Of a DNA stretch of 42,304 nt, positions 2,071-42,304 are shown in pieces. The notes beneath the pieces are model-generated. The model was not told the origin of the DNA. It did no database searches and was given only the letters and a program-made list of their open reading frames with translations. Each line of letters begins with the position of its first letter. Positions within the stretch are counted from its first letter, which is position 1. Origin of the DNA: a virus (lineage: Duplodnaviria; Heunggongvirae; Uroviricota; Caudoviricetes); IMG/VR virus record IMGVR_UViG_2734482773_000007; one strand, 5' to 3'. The position numbers and the translations under genes are program-made.

Positions 2071-3461
2071 GCTATACCTCTCTTTTTCATGGCATCGAGC
2101 AGGATGTCCTGCACTGTTCGTTTTGAGTTGCGCCGCTCCATCACCATTTCGTCCATAGTGTCGGCAGCAATAATGTGGTGAATAAATACCGGACGATTGT
2201 GTCCGGCCTGTATCTGTCTGGTTGGGCCGATACGTTCAATAATTTGCTGATACTGCTCCAGGTCCCACCAGTGTGAGAAAAATACCAGTATGTTTCCGCC
2301 GTCCTGCATGTTCAGACCGTGGCCCGCGCTGGCTGGGTGTGCAAAGAGAACAGGAATCTTTCCGGAATTCCAGTCACGTAGTGTCTGTGGATCTTGGTCG
2401 AGGTGACGACCGCGAGGAAATGCTTTAAGCAAGCGTTCAAGATCGTGTTTCCAGTGATAAGCAACCAGCACAGGTGCGCCAGCTGCTTCGGTCAATATGC
2501 TGTCCAGCGCCTGTAGTTTGGTGTCATGCAGTTCTGACCAACTTCCGGCGTCGTCTGTGTATACTGCGCCACTGGCGATTTGCAGACACTTCAGTGTCTT
2601 TGCCGCGGCGTTCGGTGCTTCGATGCCTTCGCCATTCAGCTCGAGGAACATTTCCTTTTCCATTTCACGATACTGCTGACGGGCCTTCGGCGGCATATCC
2701 ACGCGGATTACGTTATGGATGGGGGCTTTGATATCGAACCAGTCGGCCGCATCCAGCGAGAGGGTCACATCGGCTAATGCTCGCTGTATTTCAGCCTGTG
2801 AGTGAGCAAACGGCTCCAGTTTGGTCCAGCTCTGCCCTGGAAACTGTATCGAGTTGAACCAGCGTGAGGTAAACGCGCCGTAAGTGCGTCCGAGACGTTG
2901 CCCCTGGTCCACAAACCACGCTTGTCCCCACAAATCTACCAGGCCGTTCGGTGCTGGCGTACCGGTGAGATTTATCCAGCGCCGGACATACTTATGCGCC
3001 ACTTTGCCCAGCGCCGCCGCGCGCTTACCACCACCTCGCAGCCGGAAGGATTTTAGCCGGGTGCTTTCATCCGGAATGACAGTACCGAACGGCCATCGTT
3101 CTCCCAATTCTTCAACCAGCCAGACAAGGTTATCGTAGTTGATGGTGAACACGCTTGCGTTGCTGTTCGCCAGCGCCGTAGAGCGCGCTTTGGCATTACC
3201 AACAATCGGCTGTACCTCGATATTGCGCAGATGCTTCCATTTCAGCGCTTCATCCGGCCATGTGCTTGCTACAACGCGTAGCGGCGCGAGGACCAGTGCG
3301 GGGCGTGTTTCTGCCCCTGCCATAAAGAGATCTTCCAGCGTAGTGAGCGTTGCCACGGTTTTACCCATCCCCATCCCTGCCCAGATGTTGCCGCGCAGGG
3401 TTTCGGTTTCGTGGTTGATAATGAGATCTTGGTAGGGGCGAGGTATATATTTTTGGGGCAT
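2067..3461 (-). CDS. SNF2-family DEAD/DEAH-box helicase
   Basis: 464 aa; Walker A GMGMGKT near N-terminus, DEST (DExx-like) motif, C-terminal helicase motifs; RBS GGAGCC 7 nt upstream of ATG. Confidence 0.85.
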   Translation of the reverse strand: MPQKYIPRPYQDLIINHETETLRGNIWAGMGMGKTVATLTTLEDLFMAGAETRPALVLAPLRVVASTWPDEALKWKHLRNIEVQPIVGNAKARSTALANSNASVFTINYDNLVWLVEELGERWPFGTVIPDESTRLKSFRLRGGGKRAAALGKVAHKYVRRWINLTGTPAPNGLVDLWGQAWFVDQGQRLGRTYGAFTSRWFNSIQFPGQSWTKLEPFAHSQAEIQRALADVTLSLDAADWFDIKAPIHNVIRVDMPPKARQQYREMEKEMFLELNGEGIEAPNAAAKTLKCLQIASGAVYTDDAGSWSELHDTKLQALDSILTEAAGAPVLVAYHWKHDLERLLKAFPRGRHLDQDPQTLRDWNSGKIPVLFAHPASAGHGLNMQDGGNILVFFSHWWDLEQYQQIIERIGPTRQIQAGHNRPVFIHHIIAADTMDEMVMERRNSKRTVQDILLDAMKKRGIA

Positions 3462-3477
3462 ATAATATGGCTCCTAA

Positions 3478-3511
3478 ACAACAAAAGGCCAATTTAGGCC
3501 TTTTGTTGTTT
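3478..3511. terminator. perfect 14-bp-arm palindrome (AACAACAAAAGGCC-N6-GGCCTTTTGTTGTT), possible bidirectional terminator
   Basis: Read directly; GGCC core stem followed by U-rich arm on both strands; sits immediately downstream of the AT-rich gene 3525..4442 and upstream of the helicase RBS. Confidence 0.45.
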
Positions 3512-3524
3512 TAAAAAATGTTAT

Positions 3525-4442
3525 TTATAATAGTGCTGTTACTATTGCATCTTTAAAAATATTTTCTTCTTCATTTATTAAAGGTGATGACAGATGAATA
3601 ATTACTTCTTTTCCTGTCAATACTATTTGCTCGACTTGAAATCCTGCGTTGTGTAGTCTTTGGCGTAACTTTTCTAGTGCTGATTTTGATATACTAAATC
3701 CTTCACTCCTTATAGTATAACTGGCAACTCCATTTTTAATAATATCTACAGAGTTGTCAATTTCCTGCTGCGAGTAATTTTTCGGTGAGTCGAAAAATCT
3801 GGATTTTGTCGTTGCTGTTGCCCTAAGAGATATCAATAATGATTTGATATCTTTAATCTCAGATGCCAGATACTCAGTTTCTGATACTTCTTTCTGGTCT
3901 AGTTGTGCAACTTTGAAAGTGCCAAAATGTTTGAGGAATGTTGTGTATTCAGGATCAGTTACTGACTTTAAATATGTTTCTTTTATCTTGCTCGCAAGTC
4001 TTTCTTTGAATAAATTGATTGATTGGTATCTTAAATCCGAAGGGTACTCTAAATGTTCAATTGATGAAATGTCAAAGCTATAAGGAGTGCGCTCGTCCTT
4101 AATAATTACGGTCGGTTTGTCAAATGCGAGACGCATTCCTAATTCAAACATTACATTAGCGTTTCGAGCACTTATATCGCAAACAACTATGGGGTTTTCA
4201 TAAAGATTTTGAACAATTCGTTTTTGTATTACTGCAACATCATCATCTGAACTTACCAAATTTGCCTTGAATCCGGCATCATTTGATGCTTCACAAATAA
4301 TGTCATGAACATTTCTCCAATGTCCAGTGGGATAACCTTCTATGTCCGCAATTGGCATAATAATGCCGCATATATGAGGTGGCATATTTTTGTTGTCTTT
4401 TACATCATCTTGGTTTATTTCTTTCGTTTGTTGCTTAGCCAT
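3525..4442 (-). CDS. AT-rich accessory protein: N-terminal TIR-like/ThsB-like domain plus ~170-aa C-terminal domain of unknown function
   Basis: 305 aa; codon usage visibly AT-rich versus neighbours; N-terminal pattern IIMPIADIEG ... NPIVVCDISARNANVMFELGMRLAFDKPTVII resembles the beta-strand / N-V-x-x-E-x-G core of TIR-like (ThsB/DUF1863-type) folds; RBS AGGAGT upstream. Confidence 0.5.
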   Translation of the reverse strand: MAKQQTKEINQDDVKDNKNMPPHICGIIMPIADIEGYPTGHWRNVHDIICEASNDAGFKANLVSSDDDVAVIQKRIVQNLYENPIVVCDISARNANVMFELGMRLAFDKPTVIIKDERTPYSFDISSIEHLEYPSDLRYQSINLFKERLASKIKETYLKSVTDPEYTTFLKHFGTFKVAQLDQKEVSETEYLASEIKDIKSLLISLRATATTKSRFFDSPKNYSQQEIDNSVDIIKNGVASYTIRSEGFSISKSALEKLRQRLHNAGFQVEQIVLTGKEVIIHLSSPLINEEENIFKDAIVTALL

Positions 4443-4457
4443 AGCTTACACAGACTC

Positions 4458-4742
4458 CTATTGTAATTTTTTGCCTAATATACATGAAAGCTCCTTACTA
4501 TCCAGTACTACCACGGTAAAGCCCAGTTTTCGCAGACGTTCATGCTCGCGCAACTGATCAGGTCGTGGTGGTTTGCCTGGTGCTTTGCATTCGACAAAAA
4601 CGATGCGACCGCCGGGTAGCAGAACAATGCGATCTGGTACCGAGCGGAGACCGGGAGATACGAACTTAAAGGCAACCCCGCCAGCCTTTTTTACTTCAGC
4701 GACGAGGTGCTTTTCGATTAGGTTTTCACGTTCATAGGCCAT
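4458..4742 (-). CDS. VRR-NUC domain nuclease
   Basis: 94 aa; PD-(D/E)xK-like core (VLLPGGRIVFVECKAPG); VRR-NUC commonly accompanies SNF2 helicases in phage replication modules. Confidence 0.75.
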   Translation of the reverse strand: MAYERENLIEKHLVAEVKKAGGVAFKFVSPGLRSVPDRIVLLPGGRIVFVECKAPGKPPRPDQLREHERLRKLGFTVVVLDSKELSCILGKKLQ

Positions 4743-5171: not shown

Positions 5172-5933
5172 TTACGAGGAAGCGTTAGCTATTTGAGCTT
5201 GTGTAAATTCGAAACCAGAATTTTGTAACCGTTGCACTAGACGAGGAACTGTTTCACGTACATGGTCGTTGAAATTCAGATACAAAATCCCGTTAGCATC
5301 AGAAGGCTGTTCTAGGTGCTGTTTCTGAAGGATTGCTACATTGCTGCGCCCTAAGGACGAAAGAAGCATACCCATCTCGAGTACAACGTTCTGTCTTGCG
5401 CGGGGTTGGATTTCTGCTTCACCGGCGCGCTTTGAGTATCCCATATCATCAGGTGTCAAAAGAACAATCCCGAAACGGGTAGCAGTTTGTCCTTGCCCAA
5501 TTTCACGTTCAAGCTCTTCAATAATGGTGAGTCCAGTCCCTCCCGTATTCTGCAAAATGAAATGGTCTGGTAATCCAAGTTTATGAAGGATTAGCTCAAG
5601 TTGCTCCTTTGCAGTATGGTCATGGCCGTGAACAATGAATATCTTTTTGGGGAGCTCAGATGGCTGTTCTACGGCTAGTGGTGTTGCCGTGGGTGGCGTT
5701 CCTAAATGGGTCATTATTGCAGTTTCAACATTGGGACGTTCTTGAGGGTTACCTTGAAACTGAATGGTCCGGGTGGTGTAAAGGTTAACAATTACGCCAT
5801 TCGTTAAACGATAGCAGTCACAAGTCTCACGCTGTTCGTGGGAAAAATTGGTGAACCCACACTCCCTCAAAAAGTCAGGAAAAGTTTCTCTCGGGTATGG
5901 ATAGGTGATCGGCATTTCAGTTAGTTCCTGCAT
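5172..5933 (-). CDS. two-domain accessory protein: N-terminal unknown domain plus C-terminal TIR-like domain (candidate anti-phage effector)
   Basis: 253 aa; C-terminal half KIFIVHGHDHTAKEQLELILHKLGL ... RFGIVLLTPDD ... ARQNVVLEMGMLLSSLGRSNVAIL matches what I recall as the TIR-like 'predicted nucleotide-binding' family signature (VFIVHG start, NV..E.G core); own terminator downstream. Confidence 0.55.
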   Translation of the reverse strand: MQELTEMPITYPYPRETFPDFLRECGFTNFSHEQRETCDCYRLTNGVIVNLYTTRTIQFQGNPQERPNVETAIMTHLGTPPTATPLAVEQPSELPKKIFIVHGHDHTAKEQLELILHKLGLPDHFILQNTGGTGLTIIEELEREIGQGQTATRFGIVLLTPDDMGYSKRAGEAEIQPRARQNVVLEMGMLLSSLGRSNVAILQKQHLEQPSDANGILYLNFNDHVRETVPRLVQRLQNSGFEFTQAQIANASS

Positions 5934-8061: not shown

Positions 8062-8117
8062 AAAATAACCTTGTGTGATATATGGTTATGTAGGTGTAAA
8101 TAAACAAGGAGACGGCG

Positions 8118-8387
8118 GTGTTTAGCTTTGGTATCGGAATACTTTCATTGATAGGTATTATTGCTTTCCCCATTCTTTATATTTTAGGGAGAATAGTTCG
8201 GGCTGGTGGCGCATGGCTCGAACGTGAAGAAGGTCCTAAGGATCGTGTTCTTCCCAAAATTATAATTTTTGCGCTTATTGGGTTCTTTCTTGGGTGTTTG
8301 GCTCAGCCTGTATGGGACAGCATTTCGGTATGTAGAGACTATGGCAATCCAATAGGGAAATGTCTTTTTAAATTCAATGAATTTTAA
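8118..8387 (+). CDS. small membrane protein on the opposite strand (moron-like)
   Basis: 89 aa, GTG start with AAGGAG RBS 6 nt upstream; two hydrophobic segments (FGIGILSLIGIIAFPILYIL and IIIFALIGFFLGCLA); AT-rich; orientation opposite to the surrounding operon. Confidence 0.5.
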   Translation: MFSFGIGILSLIGIIAFPILYILGRIVRAGGAWLEREEGPKDRVLPKIIIFALIGFFLGCLAQPVWDSISVCRDYGNPIGKCLFKFNEF

Positions 8388-8403
8388 TTTTTAGTATTGC
8401 GGT

Positions 8404-8444
8404 AGGCTGGTTTGGATAACTATTTTCTTAAGCCAGCCTTTGTT
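8404..8444 (+). terminator. hairpin (AGGCTGG ... CCAGCCT) plus T-rich tail after the membrane-protein gene
   Basis: 7-bp perfect stem with a long 22-nt loop then TTTGTT; weak but correctly placed. Confidence 0.3.
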
Positions 8445-8454
8445 ATAAGAAATA

Positions 8455-9093
8455 TTAAGCATCTACCCCTTCGTCAGAAGGGAGGCCGATCATTTCGTTG
8501 AGAGTTTCGCGTCGTATAGCTGGCGGAAGCGGAGCAGATGGTGCATCGGCTGGCAGAAGTTCTTTAGCTTCAGGCCACTCTTCCAGCAGGCGCTTAACTG
8601 TGCGCACTTTACTGAGTGCAGCGCTGACATTCTGTCGAATGTCTGACTCATCGCTCTGTATCTGCTCATAAAGTGCATCAAACCCGTAAAACTCTGTAAC
8701 TAGAGGGTCATTTGCCAGAAGGGTAAATTCCCCCGGCGCGATTTTGTGAATATGGTCTGGTGACCCTGATTCATATCCTCGATAGTTACCGTTGAAATAG
8801 ACGGTAACCCGAGAACCTGCCAGATTCAGACACATGTAACACTCTTTCCTGATAATATTATTGGCGGTTTTTAATGCTTCGGGGAATTTTGATACCAGTG
8901 TTTCTATTTTTTTTATAATTTTTAATATTTCAGCTTCTTTCTCTACGCCCCCGATAGCTGCAAGCCGAACACGTTCGGCCCATTCAACACGAGCAGCTCG
9001 TAGTGCTGATTTACGTTTGGGGATACCCGCTTTCTCAAGTGCGTTATTGATGATTTGAGTTTTAAGGTGATTAGTTAATACGGGCTGTGACAT
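8455..9093 (-). CDS. hypothetical phage protein
   Basis: ORF extends to 9123 but GAGGGA RBS precedes the Met at 9093 (MSQPVLTN...); no recognisable motifs. Confidence 0.5.
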   Translation of the reverse strand: MSQPVLTNHLKTQIINNALEKAGIPKRKSALRAARVEWAERVRLAAIGGVEKEAEILKIIKKIETLVSKFPEALKTANNIIRKECYMCLNLAGSRVTVYFNGNYRGYESGSPDHIHKIAPGEFTLLANDPLVTEFYGFDALYEQIQSDESDIRQNVSAALSKVRTVKRLLEEWPEAKELLPADAPSAPLPPAIRRETLNEMIGLPSDEGVDA

Positions 9094-9144
9094 TATTCTT
9101 TCCCTCATGAGATACCCCAGCACGTAGCTGGGGGATGAATATTT

Positions 9145-12151: not shown

Positions 12152-12373
12152 CTACACACAGCAATTACATGGATGATTCAGTTGGTATTGTTGCGTACGT
12201 GGTACCACAAGGTTGAAGCGGACACGCCAGTGCGTTGCAATGGTATGCAGGAAAGCACCACATCCAGGGCAGTGCTCATAACATTCGTTGATTTGGTATC
12301 GTTTTGGCTTTGGTGTCAGAAGCTGTGTTTGGCAAGCAGGGCATTCACCTTTGAGCGGTTTATACGTTTTCAC
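12152..12373 (-). CDS. small zinc-ribbon protein
   Basis: 73 aa with CPAC ... CPGC pairs; first gene leftward of the repressor, i.e. the N/early-regulator position. Confidence 0.4.
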   Translation of the reverse strand: MKTYKPLKGECPACQTQLLTPKPKRYQINECYEHCPGCGAFLHTIATHWRVRFNLVVPRTQQYQLNHPCNCCV

Positions 12374-12656
12374 GCCGTTTCCTCATTCAGTTCACTTTGG
12401 TGGTTCGGCGGCTTCGACTTGTATCAGTAGACAGTACTTCGCCGCACCCCAAAGGGAACTTACTGACCCGTATTGCCGACATCCTGTCCCGCCACGGTCC
12501 CGACGCATGGTTTAGAGTCGCGCCGTTCGACTTGTGGCTAAAGATACAATTTGAGTTGTATTGTGTAAACCACAAATGTGGTATTTTGTGGGGTGTGAAT
12601 ACTACTTTATTGATATTTAAGTGAATTTAATTTGTAAGACTTTACAAATGGGGTAA

Positions 12657-16129: not shown

Positions 16130-16552
16130 ATGCGTAATATTCAACAGGTTTTAGAGCGCTGGGGTGGCTGGGCTGCGAGTGAAGGTGGTAGCGTCTACTT
16201 TCCTCCTGTTGCAGCTGGGTTTAAGAATCTGCTACCCGCGACGCAGTCTGGAAGGCTGAAATGCAGTGACAATGACGGTCTTATCATCAACTCCGCTATG
16301 AGCTGCCTGAAGAAAAAAGATCCGTATCTGTGCACGCTCCTTGAGTGGCATTACGTCCAGGCCATGCCCGTGCGGACGATGGGTGAGAAGCTCGGCGTAT
16401 CTCACACCCACGTTCTGAAGAGGCTTCAGGCGGCAGAGGGATTTATTGACGGTTGCTTAGCCATGCTGGATGTGGTGCTCGAAATGGATCAGTCGGTTCA
16501 GTCAAAGCCTCAGGCTATCAGGACTTTGCGTAGGAGCTGCTCGGCGGCATAA
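16130..16552 (+). CDS. Q: late-gene antiterminator Q (phage 82/21 type)
   Basis: 140 aa starting MRNIQQVLERWGGWAA, closely resembling what I recall of the phage 82-type Q protein N-terminus; located just upstream of the lysis cassette. Confidence 0.7.
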   Translation: MRNIQQVLERWGGWAASEGGSVYFPPVAAGFKNLLPATQSGRLKCSDNDGLIINSAMSCLKKKDPYLCTLLEWHYVQAMPVRTMGEKLGVSHTHVLKRLQAAEGFIDGCLAMLDVVLEMDQSVQSKPQAIRTLRRSCSAA

Positions 16553-16553
16553 T
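16526..16553 (+). promoter_or_regulatory. candidate late promoter (PR'-like): TTGCGT-N16-CATAAT overlapping the 3' end of Q
   Basis: Read from sequence; position is analogous to lambda PR', which overlaps the end of Q. Confidence 0.35.
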
Positions 16554-16583
16554 ATCCAGCAATCAATCACGTAAGGGAACCAG

Positions 16584-16925
16584 ATGGCTCTGATCAGCGT
16601 TCGCAACAGATTTGAAAGCTTCATGGAACAGAGGTACCCAGACCTGTCGTTGCAGGTCAAAGGTAATATTGGCGCATCAATGAAGGCTCAACTTGGCATC
16701 AGGATTGAACGAGAATTGTACAGTGAAGATGTTACTTACTGTGATTCAGCAGTTCAGTTGATGTGGACACTCTTTCAGGCAGGTGTTCTGGCCGAACGAA
16801 GAGCTACCAGCGTTACGCTTCCTGCGCTGAAGGCAAAGCCGGATAGCTTCTACGATGCGGGTTATAACGAAGGTATTCAGGACTGTCGTAAACATCTGAC
16901 GGCATCAGGCATCAAGGTAAGATAA
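16584..16925 (+). CDS. hypothetical protein in the Q-to-lysis interval (moron position)
   Basis: 113-aa ORF with AAGGGA RBS; followed by a strong terminator; no motif recognised. Confidence 0.5.
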   Translation: MALISVRNRFESFMEQRYPDLSLQVKGNIGASMKAQLGIRIERELYSEDVTYCDSAVQLMWTLFQAGVLAERRATSVTLPALKAKPDSFYDAGYNEGIQDCRKHLTASGIKVR

Positions 16926-16992
16926 AAAATAGTTGTGGAATTCCAAAAAGCCGATTAGCCTGATATCTGTTGAAAACAGTTCATCACGAAGA

Positions 16993-17016
16993 GGCTCCCG
17001 CAAGGGGGCCTTTTTT
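16993..17016 (+). terminator. rho-independent terminator (GGCUCCC-GCAA-GGGGGCC + U6)
   Basis: 7-bp stem with one G-U pair, GNRA tetraloop, six U; candidate tR'-type terminator that Q would read through. Confidence 0.7.
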
Positions 17017-17246
17017 AATGCTCTATTCTCAGTAAAAGTTAATAAAACAGGGTTTTCGTCGCGAAAAAACGCTATGCAGTTTTTGCCCTTTTTTATGCAC
17101 CTTTTATTCACTCGAATTTCGTCATTCTGGACCACTTAAGTTGATTAAATAGGCCTTTCATCGCAAATCTATTGCGAGCGGTGATCGTATGGTTCCTATA
17201 ACGTACATTATGTTAAATAACTTCCTTTTTTAACAAATTTAACAAG

Positions 17247-17269
17247 GTTCGCTATGGCGAACTTTTTTT
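17247..17269 (+). terminator. second rho-independent terminator (GTTCGC-TATG-GCGAAC + T7)
   Basis: Perfect 6-bp stem, 4-nt loop, seven T; between Q region and holin. Confidence 0.6.
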
Positions 17270-17370
17270 GTATTCAGGGCCCACCGAAGGACGGCTCATA
17301 ACCCAATCCTACGGGCGTATACGCAGGGCCCGCCTTTCAACAACACCCCGTAATGGCGGAGGTGGGAAGT

Positions 17371-17712
17371 ATGAAAATGCACAATGCTCCTCATTCCTGG
17401 CCTGACTTACTGGAACTCTTACAAAGTTGGTGGCGTGGAGATACGCCGTTGGGCGCAGTGGTTATGTCAATTGTTATGGCTGGTTTGCGCATTGCCTATT
17501 TTGACGGTGGCGGCGGCTGGAAACGAAAAACGCTTGAGATTTTGCTCTGTGGTGCTCTGACGCTGACTTTTGCATCCGCTCTTGAGTATGTCGGATGGCC
17601 TAAATCGCTTTCTGTTGCCATTGGTGGTGGTGTTGGGCTGATCGGTGTCGATGCTATTCGTGGGGCTGCAATGCGAGTAATCGGTAACAAGTTTGGTGGC
17701 TCTAAGGAGTAA
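17371..17712 (+). CDS. holin with Met-Lys-Met dual-start motif
   Basis: Hydrophobic segments (VVMSIVMAGLRIAYF; ILLCGALTLTFASAL; AIGGGVGLIGV); starts MKM like lambda S107/S105; GGAGGTGGG RBS; directly upstream of the endolysin. Confidence 0.7.
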   Translation: MKMHNAPHSWPDLLELLQSWWRGDTPLGAVVMSIVMAGLRIAYFDGGGGWKRKTLEILLCGALTLTFASALEYVGWPKSLSVAIGGGVGLIGVDAIRGAAMRVIGNKFGGSKE

Positions 17713-17715
17713 TTC

Positions 17716-18192
17716 ATGCAGACACTAAATTCCCAACGTAAAGCTTTCCTGGATATGGTGGCATGGTCAGAAGGAACGGATAACGGGCGACAACCGACAC
17801 GTAATCACGGTTATGACGTTATCGTCGGAGGTGAGTTGTTCACTGATTACTCCGATCACCCTCGCAAACTTGTCACGCTAAACCCGAAGCTTAAATCAAC
17901 AGCCGCAGGCCGGTATCAGCTTCTTTCACGCTGGTGGGATGCCTACCGCAAGCAGCTTGGCCTGAAAGATTTTTCGCCAGAAAGTCAGGACGCTGTGGCG
18001 CTGCAGCAGATTAAAGAGCGTGGCGCTTTACCGATGATTGACCGTGGCGATATTCGTCAGGCAATCGACCGTTGCAGCAATATCTGGGCGTCGTTACCTG
18101 GTGCAGGTTACGGTCAGTATGAACATAAAATCGGTGACCTGATTTCCAGGTTTAAAGATGCTGGTGGGGTGGTAAATGAAGCTGACTTATAA
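17716..18192 (+). CDS. R: endolysin, lambda R-type lytic transglycosylase
   Basis: 158 aa; long stretches (NQRKAFLDM.AWSEGTDNGRQ.TRNHGYDVIVGGELFTDYSDHPRKLVTLNPKLKST.AGRYQLLSRWWDAYRKQLGLKDFSP) match my recollection of lambda R nearly exactly. Confidence 0.85.
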   Translation: MQTLNSQRKAFLDMVAWSEGTDNGRQPTRNHGYDVIVGGELFTDYSDHPRKLVTLNPKLKSTAAGRYQLLSRWWDAYRKQLGLKDFSPESQDAVALQQIKERGALPMIDRGDIRQAIDRCSNIWASLPGAGYGQYEHKIGDLISRFKDAGGVVNEADL

Positions 18193-18700
18193 GATTGTCA
18201 TCGCGGCATTTTTCTTCTCTGTCTTTGGGGCGCTCGTCTGGTCTGCAAACCATTACCACAGCAAGTATCAGGCAGAAAAGTTGCGGGCTGATAAAGCGGA
18301 AGGTGAAGCTGAATATCAAGGGAAAGTGATAGCTAATCAGGCATTAAACTTCAATCGTTTTAACCAGATAGCAGAAAACGCAAGCCGATTAAATTCTCTG
18401 GTCGACATCGGTCACGAGAAGACAGTCATCAAATACCGTGAGGTTCTGCTCCGTGAAAAGAACTGTGATTTCCCTGTTCCTGTTGATATTGCTGTCGGGT
18501 TGCTCAACTACGCGAACCGTTTACGCGCCAGCGCATTGCACGCCGATTCCGGGGACATTGACTCAGCCGGTGATCGTGCCACTACCACCAGAACGTTGAC
18601 ATATTGCCAGGCTGTTCTGTGGATTAACCCACTGTTGGCAGCCATCGAGAAGGCGAATAACCAGTTGGCTGGTGTCCGACAAATAGAACAGTCCCGGTAA
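18176..18700 (+). CDS. Rz: Rz-like i-spanin
   Basis: 174 aa, N-terminal TM helix (IVIAAFFFSVFGALVW), coiled-coil periplasmic part; overlaps the end of R as in lambda. Confidence 0.7.
   Translation: MKLTYKIVIAAFFFSVFGALVWSANHYHSKYQAEKLRADKAEGEAEYQGKVIANQALNFNRFNQIAENASRLNSLVDIGHEKTVIKYREVLLREKNCDFPVPVDIAVGLLNYANRLRASALHADSGDIDSAGDRATTTRTLTYCQAVLWINPLLAAIEKANNQLAGVRQIEQSR
18453..18599 (+). CDS. Rz1: Rz1-like o-spanin lipoprotein embedded in Rz (+1 frame)
   Basis: Translated by hand: (V/M)KRTVISLFLLILLSGCSTTRTVYAPAHCTPIPGTLTQPVIVPLPPER; lipobox LSGC, Pro-rich tail; only GTG starts available (18453 chosen, 18465 or 18438 possible). Too short for the ORF track. Confidence 0.55.
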   Translation: MKRTVISLFLLILLSGCSTTRTVYAPAHCTPIPGTLTQPVIVPLPPER

Positions 18701-33108: not shown

Positions 33109-34176
33109 ATGTCACAGAACTGGATGAGACATTTCGAGCTGCAGCTTGTGGACGGGAACGGTCAGGGAATTGAGCTAAGTGATTTCAAAGTCACCTTTAC
33201 GATCGACTGGTTCAACATCAGCAGCGCGTCCCGGGTAGGGACTATCAAAATTTATAACCTCTCGGCAGATACTGTGAACCGAATTACCGGGCAGGAGTTT
33301 TCGAAAGTGCGTCTGATTGCGGGTTACGACGGTATCGCGCCGGAGGTGTCGGCAAGCGATGTCGGGACCGTGCGGGAGGTTGATGCGGCGGACGTGGGCC
33401 AGAGTGATGGCCGCAACTACGGACTGATTTTCAGCGGTGAAATTCGCTACTCGGTCACAGGAAAAGACAGCCCGGTTGATTCCTACGTCCTGATTCAGGC
33501 AGCCGATACAGATCTGGCTTTTGCCACCAGTATAACCTCACAGACGCTGGCTGCCGGTTACACGGTCGCTGATGTGAACCGTGCGCTGATGAAAGACTTC
33601 GAAGCCAAAGGTGCGACCGAAGGCCTGACGCCTGAAATGCCTGCTACTGTATTCCCCCGGGGGCGGGTACTCTTTGGCATGACGCGGCATCTTATGGATA
33701 ATGTAGCCGGGCAATGTGGCGCAACATGGCAATTCGTGGATGGTCAACGCCAGATGGTGGCGAATAATGAATATGTTCACGAAGCGATTGTGCTCAACAG
33801 CGCTACCGGGCTTATTGGCATGCCGCAGCAGACTATCGGTAACGGCGTAAACGTCCGCGCGCTTATTAATCCGAACATCCGGGTTAACGGGCTCATTCAA
33901 CTGGATCAGGCTTCAGTGTATCGTACCGCGTTGTCGAACAACGATATCGCGATGGCCGGTGGGCAGATCACCGACCAGAACACGGACGGAAATATTACGC
34001 TAAGCGGCACCACATCGCAGCCTGCCAGCATCGCAACGGATGGCGTTTATATTGTGCGTGGGATTATGTACACTGGCGACACAAGGGGGCAGGCGTGGTA
34101 CATGGATATGATGTGTGAAGCACGTGGCGCGGCTGATCTACTTTCGTCCTCAGCGCAGCAAAGGATTTATTCATGA
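33109..34176 (+). CDS. baseplate hub-like protein (Mu gp44 / late control D-like position)
   Basis: 355 aa; position after tape measure in Mu-like order. Confidence 0.45.
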   Translation: MSQNWMRHFELQLVDGNGQGIELSDFKVTFTIDWFNISSASRVGTIKIYNLSADTVNRITGQEFSKVRLIAGYDGIAPEVSASDVGTVREVDAADVGQSDGRNYGLIFSGEIRYSVTGKDSPVDSYVLIQAADTDLAFATSITSQTLAAGYTVADVNRALMKDFEAKGATEGLTPEMPATVFPRGRVLFGMTRHLMDNVAGQCGATWQFVDGQRQMVANNEYVHEAIVLNSATGLIGMPQQTIGNGVNVRALINPNIRVNGLIQLDQASVYRTALSNNDIAMAGGQITDQNTDGNITLSGTTSQPASIATDGVYIVRGIMYTGDTRGQAWYMDMMCEARGAADLLSSSAQQRIYS

Positions 34177-34520
34177 AGCGTATGAAGTTAGTTTTGACAA
34201 TTTCGTTATTATTTTCTTGTTCAGCAGCTTTTGCTGATTTGCAATGCGGCGGATATCTACTTCATGCAGCTGATAACGGTTGGACAAAAATCAACGGTGA
34301 GCAGGTAACATCACAGAAGATTACGTTTCTTGGTAAGAAAGATGACTGGGACAACGTTAAAACGAACATGGGCCTGATGCCTTCTCGCGATGGCAACAAT
34401 TACGGCTTTGAGTTTGTGAAGCGTAACGGAAAAGCTTTCCTGAACGTCCAGCTTCTGCAGAACAGCATGGATGCGCCTAAAATCATCGGATCATTCCCTT
34501 GTAAAAAGGCGTTACGCTAA
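34173..34520 (+). CDS. small secreted protein (cleavable signal peptide), moron-like
   Basis: 115 aa; N-terminus MKRMKLVLTISLLFSCSAAFA then DLQ fits Sec signal with AFA cleavage site; AT-rich; inserted between baseplate hub and spike genes. Confidence 0.55.
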   Translation: MKRMKLVLTISLLFSCSAAFADLQCGGYLLHAADNGWTKINGEQVTSQKITFLGKKDDWDNVKTNMGLMPSRDGNNYGFEFVKRNGKAFLNVQLLQNSMDAPKIIGSFPCKKALR

Positions 34521-34547
34521 AGTTTGATGTCAATCTTCCGAGATGAG

Positions 34548-34582
34548 CGCTTTAAGGTTGACGAGATATTGTTCAAAGTTCA
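34548..34582 (+). promoter_or_regulatory. candidate promoter for the 34616..35771 cassette (TTGACG-N17-CACAAT)
   Basis: Read from sequence; weak -10. Confidence 0.25.
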
Positions 34583-34615
34583 CAATCACAATCCCTTTAG
34601 TAAGAGAAATAATCC

Positions 34616-35389
34616 ATGGCGGCAGGCATCCCATTAGAAAAAGCGCAAAAATATATTGAACAATTCAATGCGCTTCTATTGGATAGGGAAAGTTTAGATC
34701 CCTTCACTGAAAAGAAAATTCGAGAGGAACTTTCTGTCTCTCCAACGCCTGCTACCAACATTGCACTATCTTATCTGGATGCAATAACCGGAAAGATTGA
34801 AAGCGCGTTACGTTATCTCAGGATAAGCCTAGAAGTAAACGATGTAACGTTGGCAATGCACTATCATCACATTTTAATTAATACATTTAGCTATAATGAA
34901 CTCAAGGATGTCTATGTCCCGCTGGCAAAGAAGTATCGGACAAAACTCTTTAGTCACAACGCATACAGTTGGGCGTACCGTTGCGGCGAGCGTGAACAGT
35001 TAAAATTTTATATGGAAGAGCACATTAAGCTTCTTTCTGAATCAGAAGGCAGGAGTAATGCTATGAAGCACAAAGAAGAACTCCTTGCAGAAATGGATAA
35101 TTTCTATAGCGCCACACAGTGCTCGAAGGAACAGTTCCAGACCTTAGCATCCATAATCTGGGGCTTGCTAAGTGAATACAAGGCTACGACAGGTTTCGTT
35201 CAGCTTAGTGGAAGCGGTTGCTATGTTGTTGATATTAAAAATCTTGAGCCTAAAACTATTGCCAAAATGAACTTCGACTTGGCTGATAGAGTCTGCGCTG
35301 AATCTAAACTGGATGATTGTTCCCTGTTAGCTAGATTTACCTCTCCGCGTCAGTTGCATACGGGGGTGAGCTACCATGTCGGTAACTAG
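34616..35389 (+). CDS. hypothetical helical protein, first gene of AT-rich two-gene cassette
   Basis: 257 aa, AT-rich codons, no signal peptide, no catalytic motif recognised; overlaps next gene by 14 bp. Confidence 0.55.
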   Translation: MAAGIPLEKAQKYIEQFNALLLDRESLDPFTEKKIREELSVSPTPATNIALSYLDAITGKIESALRYLRISLEVNDVTLAMHYHHILINTFSYNELKDVYVPLAKKYRTKLFSHNAYSWAYRCGEREQLKFYMEEHIKLLSESEGRSNAMKHKEELLAEMDNFYSATQCSKEQFQTLASIIWGLLSEYKATTGFVQLSGSGCYVVDIKNLEPKTIAKMNFDLADRVCAESKLDDCSLLARFTSPRQLHTGVSYHVGN

Positions 35390-35771
35390 CAATCAGATTC
35401 TCGATACCGCTCGATTATGTCTGTCTGAAAATATTGAGAGTGGATTTCGAAGCGCTATCTCAAGGGCGTATTACAGTATGTTACATGAGTCTATTAGCTC
35501 ACTTACTGCCATACCGCATTTTACCCATGAGCATCACAAAAATACTGTGGGTTATATGTCAACGCCCTCAGAGTGCAAATCAGAGCCATACCCGACAAAT
35601 ACACTGAAATCCCTAGCTTTCGTACTTCGCCAGTGGCGGGATGCTAGAAATGAAGCTGACTATGATCTGACGAATGTGACTGTTTCGAAAGAGATGGGAC
35701 AGGATGCAATCGAGGCTGCTGAACTCTATTTTGAGCGCTGGGAACAGCTAAAGTCTGCTAGAGTTTCATGA
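35376..35771 (+). CDS. small helical protein with HEPN-like features, second gene of cassette
   Basis: 131 aa; SRAYYSMLHES contains an R-x6-H spacing and AYY..LH helix start reminiscent of HEPN domains; tentative. Confidence 0.5.
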   Translation: MSVTSNQILDTARLCLSENIESGFRSAISRAYYSMLHESISSLTAIPHFTHEHHKNTVGYMSTPSECKSEPYPTNTLKSLAFVLRQWRDARNEADYDLTNVTVSKEMGQDAIEAAELYFERWEQLKSARVS

Positions 35772-35788
35772 ATAAAATTAACGTTATC

Positions 35789-35813
35789 AAACCCGCTTCG
35801 GCGGGTTTTTTGC
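35789..35813 (+). terminator. rho-independent terminator (AAACCCGC-TTCG-GCGGGTTT + T-tract)
   Basis: Perfect 8-bp stem, UUCG tetraloop, U-run; 18 nt after cassette stop. Confidence 0.8.
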
Positions 35814-40481: not shown

Positions 40482-40491
40482 TTAAACGGAA

Positions 40492-41037
40492 TTATGTGTG
40501 AGATGAGTTATAAATAATTTCAGAGTGAAATTTAGTAATGAATGTGGAGTCATCAGGAATGTCATGCAGTACCAATGCATGAGCTCCTATTTTTACATTA
40601 TTCCCTATATGCACTTTGCCACCAAGGATGGTGGCGTTACAGCCAATGGTTACATTATTTCCTATGACAATATCCATATCATTAAATTCACCGCGAAGTC
40701 CAATAGTTACCCCTGGCTTAATTGAACAATTTTCACCTATTGTAACTTTGTGACCGATAACAACGCCATTGAGATAAGATATGTCGAACCCTTTACCAAT
40801 ATTTACAGTTAAGGGAACGGTTACATTGTATTTATCAAGAATGAAGCGTTCTATTTTTCCTGCAATCTTTCGCCGGTATCCTCCTTTATCAAAAAGATAT
40901 TTTGCTACGCGCCACCAAAATAAATAACGTAATCTTCTGTGTTTTATTGCGCGAACAATTGCTTTTCGCCAGGAGAAAGGGCGTTTATAACCTATTACTT
41001 CATAGTGTATACAGTTTTTAAGTTCACTAATATTCAT
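40492..41037 (-). CDS. hexapeptide-repeat acyltransferase (left-handed beta-helix; candidate lysogenic-conversion acetyltransferase)
   Basis: 181 aa; repeated [LIV]-G-x-x-x-x-I-G units (VVIGHKVTIGENCSIKPGVTIG ... IGNNVTIGCNATILGGKVHIGNNVKIG); AT-rich; convergent with Tfa, 10-bp gap. Confidence 0.7.
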   Translation of the reverse strand: MNISELKNCIHYEVIGYKRPFSWRKAIVRAIKHRRLRYLFWWRVAKYLFDKGGYRRKIAGKIERFILDKYNVTVPLTVNIGKGFDISYLNGVVIGHKVTIGENCSIKPGVTIGLRGEFNDMDIVIGNNVTIGCNATILGGKVHIGNNVKIGAHALVLHDIPDDSTFITKFHSEIIYNSSHT

Positions 41038-41121
41038 ATGTCTATTATTCAGTAAAGATAATTCTGTAACTTATTATTATATTAAGTTTAATGAGATTTT
41101 TCTACAGTTTACTGTCTTACT

Positions 41122-41250
41122 CTCACGCCGGAGCAATGGGCGCAGGCTGGACGACAAATTGCATCAGGAGTTTCTCGCCAGAAAATGGCGATCATCTATG
41201 ATGTTGGCGTATCGACTTTGTATAAGAAGTTTCCGGTCGGAGATGAATGA
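41122..41250 (+). pseudogene. 3' remnant of a serine DNA invertase (Pin/Gin/Hin family), C-terminal HTH only
   Basis: Hand translation LTPEQWAQAGRQIASGVSRQKMAIIYDVGVSTLYKKFPVGDE* matches my recollection of the Pin C-terminus; in-frame stop at 41092 and only 84 bp separate it from the acetyltransferase start, so the catalytic domain is absent. Confidence 0.6.
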
Positions 41251-41252
41251 AA

Positions 41253-41285
41253 CCGTGGCACGTCGTATGCAAGAACGTGCCACGG
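41253..41285. other. perfect 10-bp inverted repeat CCGTGGCACG-N13-CGTGCCACGG
   Basis: Read from sequence; lies right after the invertase-remnant stop and downstream of the minus-strand gene 41332..41979; possible terminator. Confidence 0.4.
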
Positions 41286-41331
41286 CTGGCTGATAAGCTT
41301 GTAAAAATCTTGAACAGGGAGTGGAGCATTT

Positions 41332-41979
41332 CTATGAAGCTAATTTGTTTAATTTCATTTGTAGCGACTTTACTTCTTGGTCGATAATGTTGAATCCCTT
41401 ATTGACTGCATCTCTTAGTTCTGCATCAATATTTTTTATCCCTTGAGCATAATCTACCATTACATCTATTTTTTCATCATGTAATCTCTTATACATGGTT
41501 TTATCTTTGTTATTGTCAGCCATACCAATAAGGATTTTTTCATAATCCTCAATGAGTTTGTTGTTTCCTTTAAATGATTGTATTAATGACCGTGAATATG
41601 TGTAGATATTAATTATTGAGTCTCTGGCAGAATCATTTAGTTTTGCAATGACATTCGCATTTTGCTCATAGAATGTGAAATTATCATCCCCTACAGGGAA
41701 AGTGAGAATTAACATCTGTCCGGGTTTGATATTATCAATGTGTGTTTTCATCCTTTTATTATATAAATTGATTAGGGTGAAAACTTCTCCCTTAACACCT
41801 TTTAATACTGAAAGTTGCAATTCAAGGGATTCTCTTTCTGTCTCTACTTTAGACAGCTTAGCTTGTTGGGTAACTCCTTTTAGGGTAAACCATCCGCCAA
41901 TAAGAGTACCAACTAGAGCTGTGAGGGAGGAGGATAACCATCCAGGAATGCTATTTAAAAAATTACTAAATTCACTCAT
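41332..41979 (-). CDS. AT-rich hypothetical protein with N-terminal transmembrane anchor
   Basis: 215 aa; N-terminal hydrophobic segment LSSSLTALVGTLIGGWFTL then coiled-coil-like region; strongly AT-rich. Confidence 0.5.
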   Translation of the reverse strand: MSEFSNFLNSIPGWLSSSLTALVGTLIGGWFTLKGVTQQAKLSKVETERESLELQLSVLKGVKGEVFTLINLYNKRMKTHIDNIKPGQMLILTFPVGDDNFTFYEQNANVIAKLNDSARDSIINIYTYSRSLIQSFKGNNKLIEDYEKILIGMADNNKDKTMYKRLHDEKIDVMVDYAQGIKNIDAELRDAVNKGFNIIDQEVKSLQMKLNKLAS

Positions 41980-42037
41980 TATAAGTACTCGCTAATATTG
42001 AACGATATATATATCAAATTATTATAAAACTCGTCAG

Positions 42038-42304
42038 CTACTGGAGAAGGCTACCTGAACTTCGATCTATTCCTGCATCCATATAGTTGATGGTCTTCTG
42101 GAGCTCTTCGATTAGGGCAACAGCTTTTGCTCGAGAAATGCATATTAGTTGATCCGGAAATTCTTGTAAGGGCCAGTTTGGTATACAGGCCATGTTATCA
42201 GTGAAGGATGCAGACAAGTAAACTTCATTGGTAACCAGAGAATAGCTTACCTCAAAATTGGTGAGTTCCGGCAAACTGCTAACGTTTGACTCTTTTCTGC
42301 GCAT
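42038..42304 (-). CDS. hypothetical protein (N-terminus at window edge; may extend beyond)
   Basis: 88-aa ORF whose ATG coincides with the last three bases of the window, so the true start may be upstream outside the window. Confidence 0.35.
   Translation of the reverse strand: MRRKESNVSSLPELTNFEVSYSLVTNEVYLSASFTDNMACIPNWPLQEFPDQLICISRAKAVALIEELQKTINYMDAGIDRSSGSLLQ

Follow-up and report, generated by a model that had tools for sequence, protein, structure and literature searches.

A turnover hot spot at the att-proximal end of a SEN34-like Escherichia coli prophage: an AT-rich mobile cassette downstream of a conserved, probably LexA-controlled gene

What are the two genes that close the right end of a 42,304-nt stretch of phage-derived DNA (IMG/VR virus record IMGVR_UViG_2734482773_000007, hereafter the "window"): mobile cargo, parts of the phage backbone, or genes of the bacterial host? 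A preliminary description had marked positions 41332-42304 as carrying two minus-strand open reading frames (ORFs), the first coding for a membrane-anchored protein of 215 aa and the second running off the window edge, and had taken both for strongly AT-rich accessory genes at a prophage end. We found the two minus-strand ORFs at 41332-41979 (ORF1, 215 aa) and 42038-42304 (ORF2, 88 aa). As regards the genomic anatomy, we have high confidence that they lie at the right, attachment site (att)-proximal end of a ~40.5-kb SEN34-like (Brunovirus-type) myovirus prophage of Escherichia coli, integrated at yfhL. Overall, the locus comprises an AT-rich mobile cassette, ORF1, downstream of a conserved and probably LexA-controlled gene, ORF2, at a prophage-end hot spot. 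Frequencies in E. coli given below refer to a survey of 5426 complete genomes.

Prophage limits and the slot next to ORF2

The window region is 99.9% identical to E. coli DETEC-P1056, where the prophage extends from a tyrosine integrase next to yfhL through to ORF2, with the host genes yfhH, pgpC and tadA beyond. Comparison by BLAST of the empty yfhL-yfhH site of E. coli K-12 with a 99.9%-identical lysogen (L003) placed attR at L003 44897-44934. The last base of the window, 42304, corresponds to L003 44690, i.e. attR, which the preliminary description had expected further to the right, lies 207 bp past the window end and is followed by host yfhH. The left junction, attL, is at 214-251, inside the 5' end of yfhL, and over their first 18 bp the two att copies have the same sequence (TTCACACATATCACAATT). 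Both ORFs thus lie between attL and attR, inside the prophage, and are not ordinary host genes, an outcome for which the preliminary description had left room.

At 35.4% GC, the interval 41332-42304 is below the window as a whole (49.3%); stretches of the same length reach so low a value in just 1.3% of cases. The strong AT-richness ascribed to both genes is, however, a property of ORF1 (33.2% GC; GC at third codon positions, GC3, 0.30; 49.4% GC for the prophage overall), whereas ORF2 deviates only mildly (43.1% GC, GC3 0.44). The AT-rich block begins already at 40482 and takes in a hexapeptide acetyltransferase gene at 40492-41037 (35.7% GC). Nor is ORF2 incomplete: its ATG forms the final three bases of the window, PGAP uses the same ATG, and 30 aligned homologues of 87-88 aa begin at that methionine (an in-frame ATG 12 nt farther upstream is present but not conserved). 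Substitutions are dominated by third codon positions both between ORF2 and its SEN34 counterpart (13/8/45 by codon position) and between ORF1 and an Enterobacter homologue (46/28/100), thus both are real genes.

Between the invertase/tail-fibre module and ORF2 the gene content turns over: this is a genuine hot spot, with at least five occupancy states including an empty one. ORF1 fills this slot in the window. Phage vB_EcoM-611R5 and strain NMBU_W05E18 carry there an unrelated gene of 281 aa, SEN34 and Salmonella prophages an Acyl_transf_3 gene with small ORFs, and Citrobacter nothing, its invertase gene directly abutting ORF2; in phages Fostie and YeP1, dinI comes directly after the ORF2-like gene. 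Homology with prophages bearing other cargo restarts at 42023, 15 bp 3' of the ORF2 stop codon, which sets the right limit of the swappable cargo at about that position. A phage hot spot has been defined as a 1-5-kb high-turnover locus flanked by two conserved genes (Rousset 2022, PMC9122126), and the turnover of this slot between conserved flanks fits that definition. ORF1 is present in 80 and ORF2 in 125 of the E. coli genomes, each as a single chromosomal copy; ETEC H10407 and O103:H2 12009 are among the carriers of ORF1. The idea that they form a two-gene system was rejected, as each is found without the other. ORF2 is always the final gene before att, and its inner neighbour changes; it is phage backbone and a conserved flank of the hot spot. 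The view of the two ORFs as accessory genes therefore stands for ORF1, which is true cargo, and falls for ORF2.

On its left side the slot borders, as had been noticed, on the remnant of an invertase gene, pin, on the plus strand. The remnant (41122-41250) consists of the last 42 codons and the stop codon: 41122-41247 codes only for residues 143-184 of the 184-aa PinE and is 90% identical to the intact PinE of L002 (tblastn); PGAP annotates it as a partial helix-turn-helix pseudogene. Positions 40482-41121 contain the acetyltransferase gene in place of the alternative tail-fibre/chaperone segment and the first 142 pin codons, which leaves this lineage without a working tail-fibre inversion switch. 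The acetyltransferase (40492-41037, minus strand, 181 aa) is a second cargo gene, a hexapeptide-repeat protein of the CysE/EpsC/WcaB-like type, with matches to Pfam Hexapep (1e-13), NCBIfam EpsC (3e-24, below the cut-off) and phrog_2154 (8e-78). Its full arrangement is rare, with 11 occurrences in the 5426 genomes.

The ORF1 family: mobility, conservation and predicted structure

ORF1 is a horizontally acquired, AT-rich and mobile single-gene cargo. Its close homologues, of 60-74% identity, are spread across Enterobacterales; none has a Pfam domain, and every source name in the 90% clusters of the family is "hypothetical". A profile search of 1.84 billion representatives yielded 676 members at E<=1e-3 (counted as representative clusters at 50% identity) and 259 at E<=1e-10. 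Family members share the same layout and are nearly all 190-220 aa long. Close-family patterns gave 7 matches among 185,579 species-representative genomes. ORF1 itself has no match in Pfam or NCBIfam, none at E<=1 in PADLOC-DB v2.0.0, none below E 0.05 in PHROGs, and none in a sequence-profile search of the PDB. When 54 distant relatives were compared with Pfam, PADLOC and PHROGs, the sole recurring match was a weak one, to phrog_33426 (of unknown function), in 7 of the 54. The literature yielded no paper on the protein accessions or phrog identifiers.

Analysis of the genomic contexts reveals a gene that turns up in very different surroundings. Homologues of 64-74% identity are found in a chromosomal islet beside HigBA in Enterobacter, in an integrative and conjugative element (ICE) of Dickeya together with CcdAB and a coupling protein, and directly after cI and an HSDR_N gene in lambdoid prophages of Providencia. 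Further homologues lie between gpS and gpV of P2-like prophages (i.e. in the slot of the non-essential P2 orf30), in a P4-type primase island, where the next gene downstream codes for a PifA-like KAP NTPase (L032, 1.7e-65), adjacent to the integrase in a capsid-bearing Klebsiella element, and beside a TIR protein (Pfam) in a metagenomic contig (L043/L044); relatives of 31-32% identity are carried on 29 plasmids. In four contexts unrelated to one another, conservation extends from the gene into about 150 bp of the DNA upstream, which argues that ORF1 moves as a cassette.

The neighbours differ in every context examined, and no conserved partner gene was seen. Among 148 neighbour proteins pooled from 18 ORF1-family loci there are 7 integrases. 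Defence-related neighbours that could be mapped to their loci are the PifA-like KAP NTPase (L032), an RT_UG29-like protein (L056) and the TIR protein (L043/L044); the pooled proteins also gave, not mapped to loci, one ThsB-like TIR match and matches to PDC-S18, PDC-S66, PD-Lambda-2 A/B and mad2/mad8. In four Klebsiella loci (L039-L042, 6702-7127) an ORF1 relative of 56% identity always precedes, by 35 nt, a gene of 140-142 aa without a Pfam match, and the integrases of these loci differ; this gene may be a lineage-specific partner.

ORF1 is intact in all 80 E. coli carrier genomes, and sequence comparison indicates strong purifying selection over its whole 215 aa. The membrane anchor reported in the preliminary description corresponds to a single N-terminal hydrophobic segment, residues 14-33 (41881-41940, minus strand; WLSSSLTALVGTLIGGWFTL), which is Gly-rich and glycine-zipper-like. 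Within it A21, G24, G28 and G29 are invariant in close relatives, and G24 is kept at >=90% across the whole family; such conservation of a putative transmembrane (TM) helix appears to go beyond what would be expected of a plain membrane anchor. An AlphaFold2 model (mean pLDDT 80.6, with values above 90 for most of the helical domain) presents the remainder as a three-helix bundle with helices at 29-82, 116-154 and 160-214. The most conserved motif, codons 94-108 (41656-41700, minus strand; FPVGDDNFTFYEQNA), falls in the loop that joins helices 1 and 2 of the predicted cytoplasmic domain; F101 is invariant, and the consensus Y-P-x-x-Q-D-Y-F-T-V-Y holds across a family whose members are 20-30% identical. 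We saw no catalytic signature.

Two sequence features argue for a cytoplasmic location of the helical domain. The flanks of the TM segment carry on average 0.39 K+R on the N side versus 3.19 on the C side, with 50 of 54 members C-heavy, and in relatives with N-terminal extensions of 46-100 residues this TM helix mostly comes after a hydrophilic stretch, itself preceded by a signal-peptide-like leader (type I layout). We infer that ORF1 is a single-pass (bitopic) inner-membrane protein in N-out/C-in orientation, with a glycine-zipper TM helix and a cytoplasmic three-helix bundle of ~180 aa.

ORF2 and its predicted SOS control

ORF2 matches phrog_17793 (E 8e-45), and its family is narrow, with 61 clusters from Escherichia, Salmonella and Citrobacter; tblastn against all deposited phages retrieved 11 records, with no Gifsy, 186 or PSP3 record among them. 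PGAP leaves the gene unannotated in most carrier genomes ("none" in ~2/3 of the sampled match rows), and the paper describing SEN34 is silent on gene 31. To judge from its sequences, the family is conserved and under purifying selection. There was no match at E<=1 in PADLOC-DB v2.0.0 and none in the PDB sequence-profile search. The AlphaFold2 model, of medium confidence (pLDDT 76.6), shows a beta-hairpin and a third strand, with a long helix at the C-terminus. A three-stranded antiparallel sheet followed by a C-terminal helix, as in COMM domains, is thus present in the model; however, ORF2 is only 8-17% identical to COMM-fold proteins, has no Pfam match at E<=1 and, with its 88 aa, is devoid of the N-terminal helical HN domain of COMMD proteins (PF07258; Liu 2026, PMC13392464; the COMM features are taken from that paper, which mentions neither phages nor stand-alone COMM proteins). 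The likeness is best read as a fold-level resemblance that would predict dimerisation, not as family membership, and a fold so small and simple could be convergent. An excisionase was considered and set aside: ORF2 is acidic (net charge about -4 by hand count), lacks a predicted DNA-binding fold, and an AlpA-like helix-turn-helix gene already adjoins int. We favour an SOS-induced, presumably dimeric regulatory or induction-linked factor.

Upstream of ORF2 we found a putative LexA box, ACCTGTACATAATTACAGTC in L001, which ends 12 nt before the ATG and occupies positions 13-32 nt past the window end. It has the form CTGT-N8-ACAG with an AT-rich spacer, and 14 of its 20 positions match TACTGTATATATATACAGTA. 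A CTG-N10-CAG box with a 14-17/20 consensus match precedes the ORF2 start in all nine loci compared: AACTGTACATAATTACAGTC in 611R5 and NMBU, TACTGTACAAAAAACCAGTA in SEN34, TACTGTATAAAACACCAGTA in Salmonella, AACTGTATAAAAACACAGTA in Citrobacter, AACTGTATTTATATCCAGTA in YeP1 and TACTGTGTATGCATCCAGCA in Fostie. The distance from box to start is 11-19 nt in eight of the nine; the exception is Fostie, with 48 nt to the annotated start and, read by eye, ~15 nt to an earlier in-frame ATG. The box has been kept while the surrounding upstream DNA diverged, apart from a TTGACT (-35) element, which in the E. coli, Salmonella, Citrobacter and SEN34 loci stands 17 nt upstream of a weak -10 abutting the box (also read by eye). 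Taken together, these features make it probable that ORF2 is switched on by the SOS response via LexA.

Sites with at least 14/20 matches number two in the 46.5-kb lysogen region, compared with 0.13 expected from block shuffles. The other site, TACTGTATGTTGATCCAGTG, lies at 336-355 of the window on the plus strand (15/20), 115-130 nt upstream of the integrase gene (470/476-1873), and suggests that int may also be under SOS control. As the two boxes are near opposite prophage ends, the predicted operators would flank attP in the circular phage.

The 58-nt spacer between ORF2 and ORF1 (41980-42037, minus strand) is devoid of stable RNA structure (fold z = +1.5), i.e. it holds no terminator. Downstream of ORF1, a stem-loop on the minus strand at 41251-41287 (14-bp stem and 9-nt loop, followed by UUCAUUCAU) starts right after the pin stop codon of the opposite strand; its fold z is -3.2, only 1 in 200 shuffles folded equally well, and it is probably the intrinsic terminator of the ORF2-ORF1 transcript. 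A consensus terminator scan missed this hairpin, its loop being longer than 8 nt. The overlapping 40 bp at 41253-41292 recur with 97.5% identity near the ends of ~44 Stx1/Stx2-converting phages, where they are unannotated, and the similarity of the hairpin to the Shigella small RNA CssrB of Rfam is sub-threshold (33.5 bits against a gathering score of 76). The simplest reading of these signals is a single predicted SOS-inducible ORF2-ORF1 transcript.

Known systems and possible roles

The closest known architecture, by analogy, would be the SOS operon of phage 186, whose deposited record gives the order LexA operator at p95, tum (which joins an antirepressor to a DinI-like half), partial terminator, orf97 and terminator; orf97 is annotated there with "expression from plasmid blocks 186 infection". 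Both loci combine a LexA box overlapping a promoter (here predicted) with a small regulatory gene, an accessory gene of ~215-245 aa and a terminator, and both lie away from the immunity region, near one end of the deposited map. The differences are that neither ORF2 and Tum nor ORF1 and Orf97 show detectable similarity, that ORF2 lacks the DinI-like half of Tum, that the backbone is SEN34-like and not P2/186-like, and that LexA control is only predicted here. In Gifsy prophages a LexA-controlled operon contains dinI, an antirepressor gene and irsA (Lemire 2011, PMC3121763), and PSP3 and Fels-2 have a split tum, in which the antirepressor gene precedes dinI (PMC3121763). Our locus resembles these in having a small gene with a LexA box outside the immunity region, coupled to dinI in Fostie and YeP1. 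It differs in that the GfoA- and Tum-bearing phages show no tblastn homology to it, dinI is absent from the locus in the window, the repressor is of the self-cleaving CI type, and an antirepressor activity is putative.

Like anti-phage hot spots (PMC9122126) and the P2 morons orf30, fun(Z), tin and old, the slot is a high-turnover locus of 1-5 kb with AT-rich cargo between conserved phage genes, and ORF1 homologues themselves fill the orf30 slot between S and V in P2-like prophages. Unlike the described hot spots, it is flanked by the pin/tail-fibre module and a predicted LexA-controlled gene in a different phage group, and the ORF1 family is PADLOC-negative and unrelated to P2 Orf30. A further likeness is to P22 SieA (PMC10883804), lambda SieB and RexB, HK97 gp15 and T4 Imm, small inner-membrane proteins (in the case of ORF1, predicted) encoded at accessory positions of prophages, and the Providencia homologue downstream of cI recalls lambda rexAB. 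There is, however, no sequence or profile similarity to any of them, and ORF1 is predicted to have a single TM helix and to be nearly all cytoplasmic.

From these associations we propose, at slightly less than even odds (a rough probability of 0.45), that ORF1 is a phage- or mobile genetic element-exclusion factor acting at the inner membrane. In this model the two-gene unit would be read leftwards from just inside attR, with ORF2 first, induced by SOS, and ORF1 second, by read-through. The cytoplasmic domain of ORF1 would recognise or bind some component of a phage that is entering the cell or is co-induced; the TM helix, by oligomerising, would then either permeabilise the inner membrane (abortive infection) or block a step of DNA entry there. 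LexA-wired in this manner, ORF1 would come into play just when all resident prophages are induced together by DNA damage. We favour the pore-type abortive-infection variant because the protein is almost wholly cytoplasmic and the TM helix itself is conserved, but this sub-mechanism remains tentative and on the doubtful side. The boldest combination, in which ORF1 would represent a new widespread family of single-gene anti-phage or inter-prophage effectors, with a three-helix sensor gating a glycine-zipper TM helix and LexA-wired here, and ORF2 a new SOS-induced stand-alone COMM-fold regulator (antirepressor or induction factor), seems improbable as a joint claim.

A number of observations weigh against the proposal. 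ORF1 has no homology to any defence or exclusion protein: hhalign comparisons of the family with lambda SieB (0.5%), P2 Orf30 and 186 Orf97 gave probabilities below 1%, i.e. at noise level, and among the 54 distant relatives PADLOC produced only scattered single-member matches at E>1e-4 and PHROGs no family named for exclusion. The Foldseek matches of ORF1 in the PDB and BFVD are all generic coiled coils or helical bundles (best E 0.03-0.04). The model is unconfident for residues 1-36, and the TM segment is moderately hydrophobic (KD19 maximum 1.35). Phage carriage is known from predicted prophages only, as tblastn of ORF1 against 50,697 deposited phage genomes found no homologue. The defence neighbourhood is anecdotal, suggestive and not statistical, with 18 loci and several PADLOC matches that are not mapped, and one further neighbour match, to pVip, is probably a false positive on an NrdG-like radical-SAM protein. 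As to expression, the LexA box and promoter are sequence predictions located outside the window, and the -10 is so weak that a consensus promoter scan did not flag the ORF2 promoter. The spacer contains a perfect -10-like TATAAT (42026->42021, minus strand) with a poor -35, which might drive ORF1 instead, or independently in addition; with the hairpin after the gene it would give ORF1 autonomous signals, read-through from ORF2 being equally possible. Elsewhere the ORF1 cassette occurs without a LexA box, thus SOS control is not intrinsic to the family.

Alternative roles have to be weighed against the same evidence. The absence of a homology tie to defence is also what would be expected if ORF1 served lysogenic conversion or host physiology, e.g. 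as a modulator of envelope or membrane stress, a colonisation factor or a surface-modification partner of the acetyltransferase. That the hexapeptide acetyltransferase adjoins ORF1 here, that O-antigen-type acyltransferases occupy the same slot in Salmonella and SEN34, and that hot spots carry virulence cargo too (Rousset 2022, PMC9122126) point in the same direction. Such a role nevertheless appears rather unlikely: 69 of the 80 E. coli genomes with ORF1 lack the acetyltransferase arrangement, homologues elsewhere have no acetyltransferase neighbour, the recurrent neighbours of the family are integrases, toxin-antitoxin pairs and defence genes, and a protein whose bulk is predicted to be cytoplasmic fits surface modification poorly. 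The toxin-antitoxin neighbours (HigBA, CcdAB, PemK/MazE, in several contexts) could instead mark ORF1 as a selfish toxin or addiction protein of the membrane, or as a functionless hitch-hiker kept by hot-spot recombination, for which its small size, its conserved glycine-zipper TM helix and its sporadic distribution (the 7 matches among species-representative genomes) also speak. We consider this quite unlikely, given that no cognate antitoxin-like partner is conserved beside the family genes, and that the family is deep, under purifying selection over its whole length and intact in every E. coli carrier. An N-terminal TM helix followed by long helices is reminiscent of Rz-type i-spanins, and predicted expression during SOS induction would suit a late or induction role, but ORF1 as a lysis or late membrane protein (i-spanin, antiholin or lysis-timing factor) is very improbable. 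A lysis cassette belonging to the prophage itself (16584-18700: holin, GH104 endolysin and a 174-aa gene) lies at a distance of 24 kb, ORF1 is missing from 45 of 125 otherwise similar prophages, and its relatives occur in ICEs, chromosomal islets and plasmids without lysis genes; moreover, the predicted C-in topology is opposite to that of i-spanins (N-in/C-out), and no o-spanin partner is present.

A different possibility centres on ORF2, as a LexA-controlled antirepressor or SOS modulator comparable to the N-terminal half of 186 Tum, the split Tum of PSP3 and Fels-2, or Gifsy GfoA, with ORF1 as a passenger that has no part in induction. The conserved LexA box in front of a small first gene is what this would predict, the ORF2-dinI order of Fostie and YeP1 is the PSP3 order, and the COMM-like fold would make ORF2 a dimer, as Gifsy antirepressors are dimers bound to repressor dimers (PMC3121763). 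ORF2 shows, however, no sequence similarity to Tum (hhalign probability 0.4% for the family), and its few phage matches include none of the phages with known antirepressors of this type (Gifsy, 186, PSP3). The prophage repressor shows the marks of a self-cleaving S24 repressor, namely the QAG (Ala-Gly) site and, for the Ser/Lys dyad, the motifs GDSM and FKKY; with such a repressor an antirepressor is not required; Fels-1 has both a cleavable repressor and an antirepressor (PMC3121763). We regard this arrangement as a minority possibility, and retain exclusion as the reading of ORF1 set out above.

The slot next to ORF2 is probably not the only one of its kind in this prophage. The most AT-rich patch of the window (~34% GC), at 3426-4494, contains a minus-strand ORF of 305 aa (3525-4442). 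The prophage of NZ_CP116169.1, otherwise 97-98% identical, has a different gene at this place and nothing that corresponds to the patch. Flanked by the helicase and VRR-NUC genes of the early region, the patch probably represents a second cargo hot spot. Further segments, 8062-9144 (with a minus-strand ORF of 222 aa at 8455-9123), 12193-12378, 16179-17004 and 34140-35798, are unaligned with a near-identical reference prophage and represent more variable slots. A gene of 253 aa in the replication module (5172-5933, minus strand), between the DNA polymerase and VRR-NUC genes, is named "TIR domain-containing" in the matching RefSeq record and is a possible defence or counter-defence gene carried by the prophage.

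Prophage-end hot spots, morons and SOS operons are already well known, and nothing in this locus is surprising in kind. If ORF1 is an exclusion or abortive-infection effector, it would add a compact single-gene system, and a large family spread across Enterobacterales and annotated only as "hypothetical" would have been invisible to Pfam, PADLOC and NCBIfam. ORF2, with its conserved, textbook-like SOS box and its frequent lack of annotation, is a candidate for a new induction-linked factor. The predicted LexA wiring suggests, finally, that some prophage cargo may act during SOS co-induction, and not constitutively in the lysogen.

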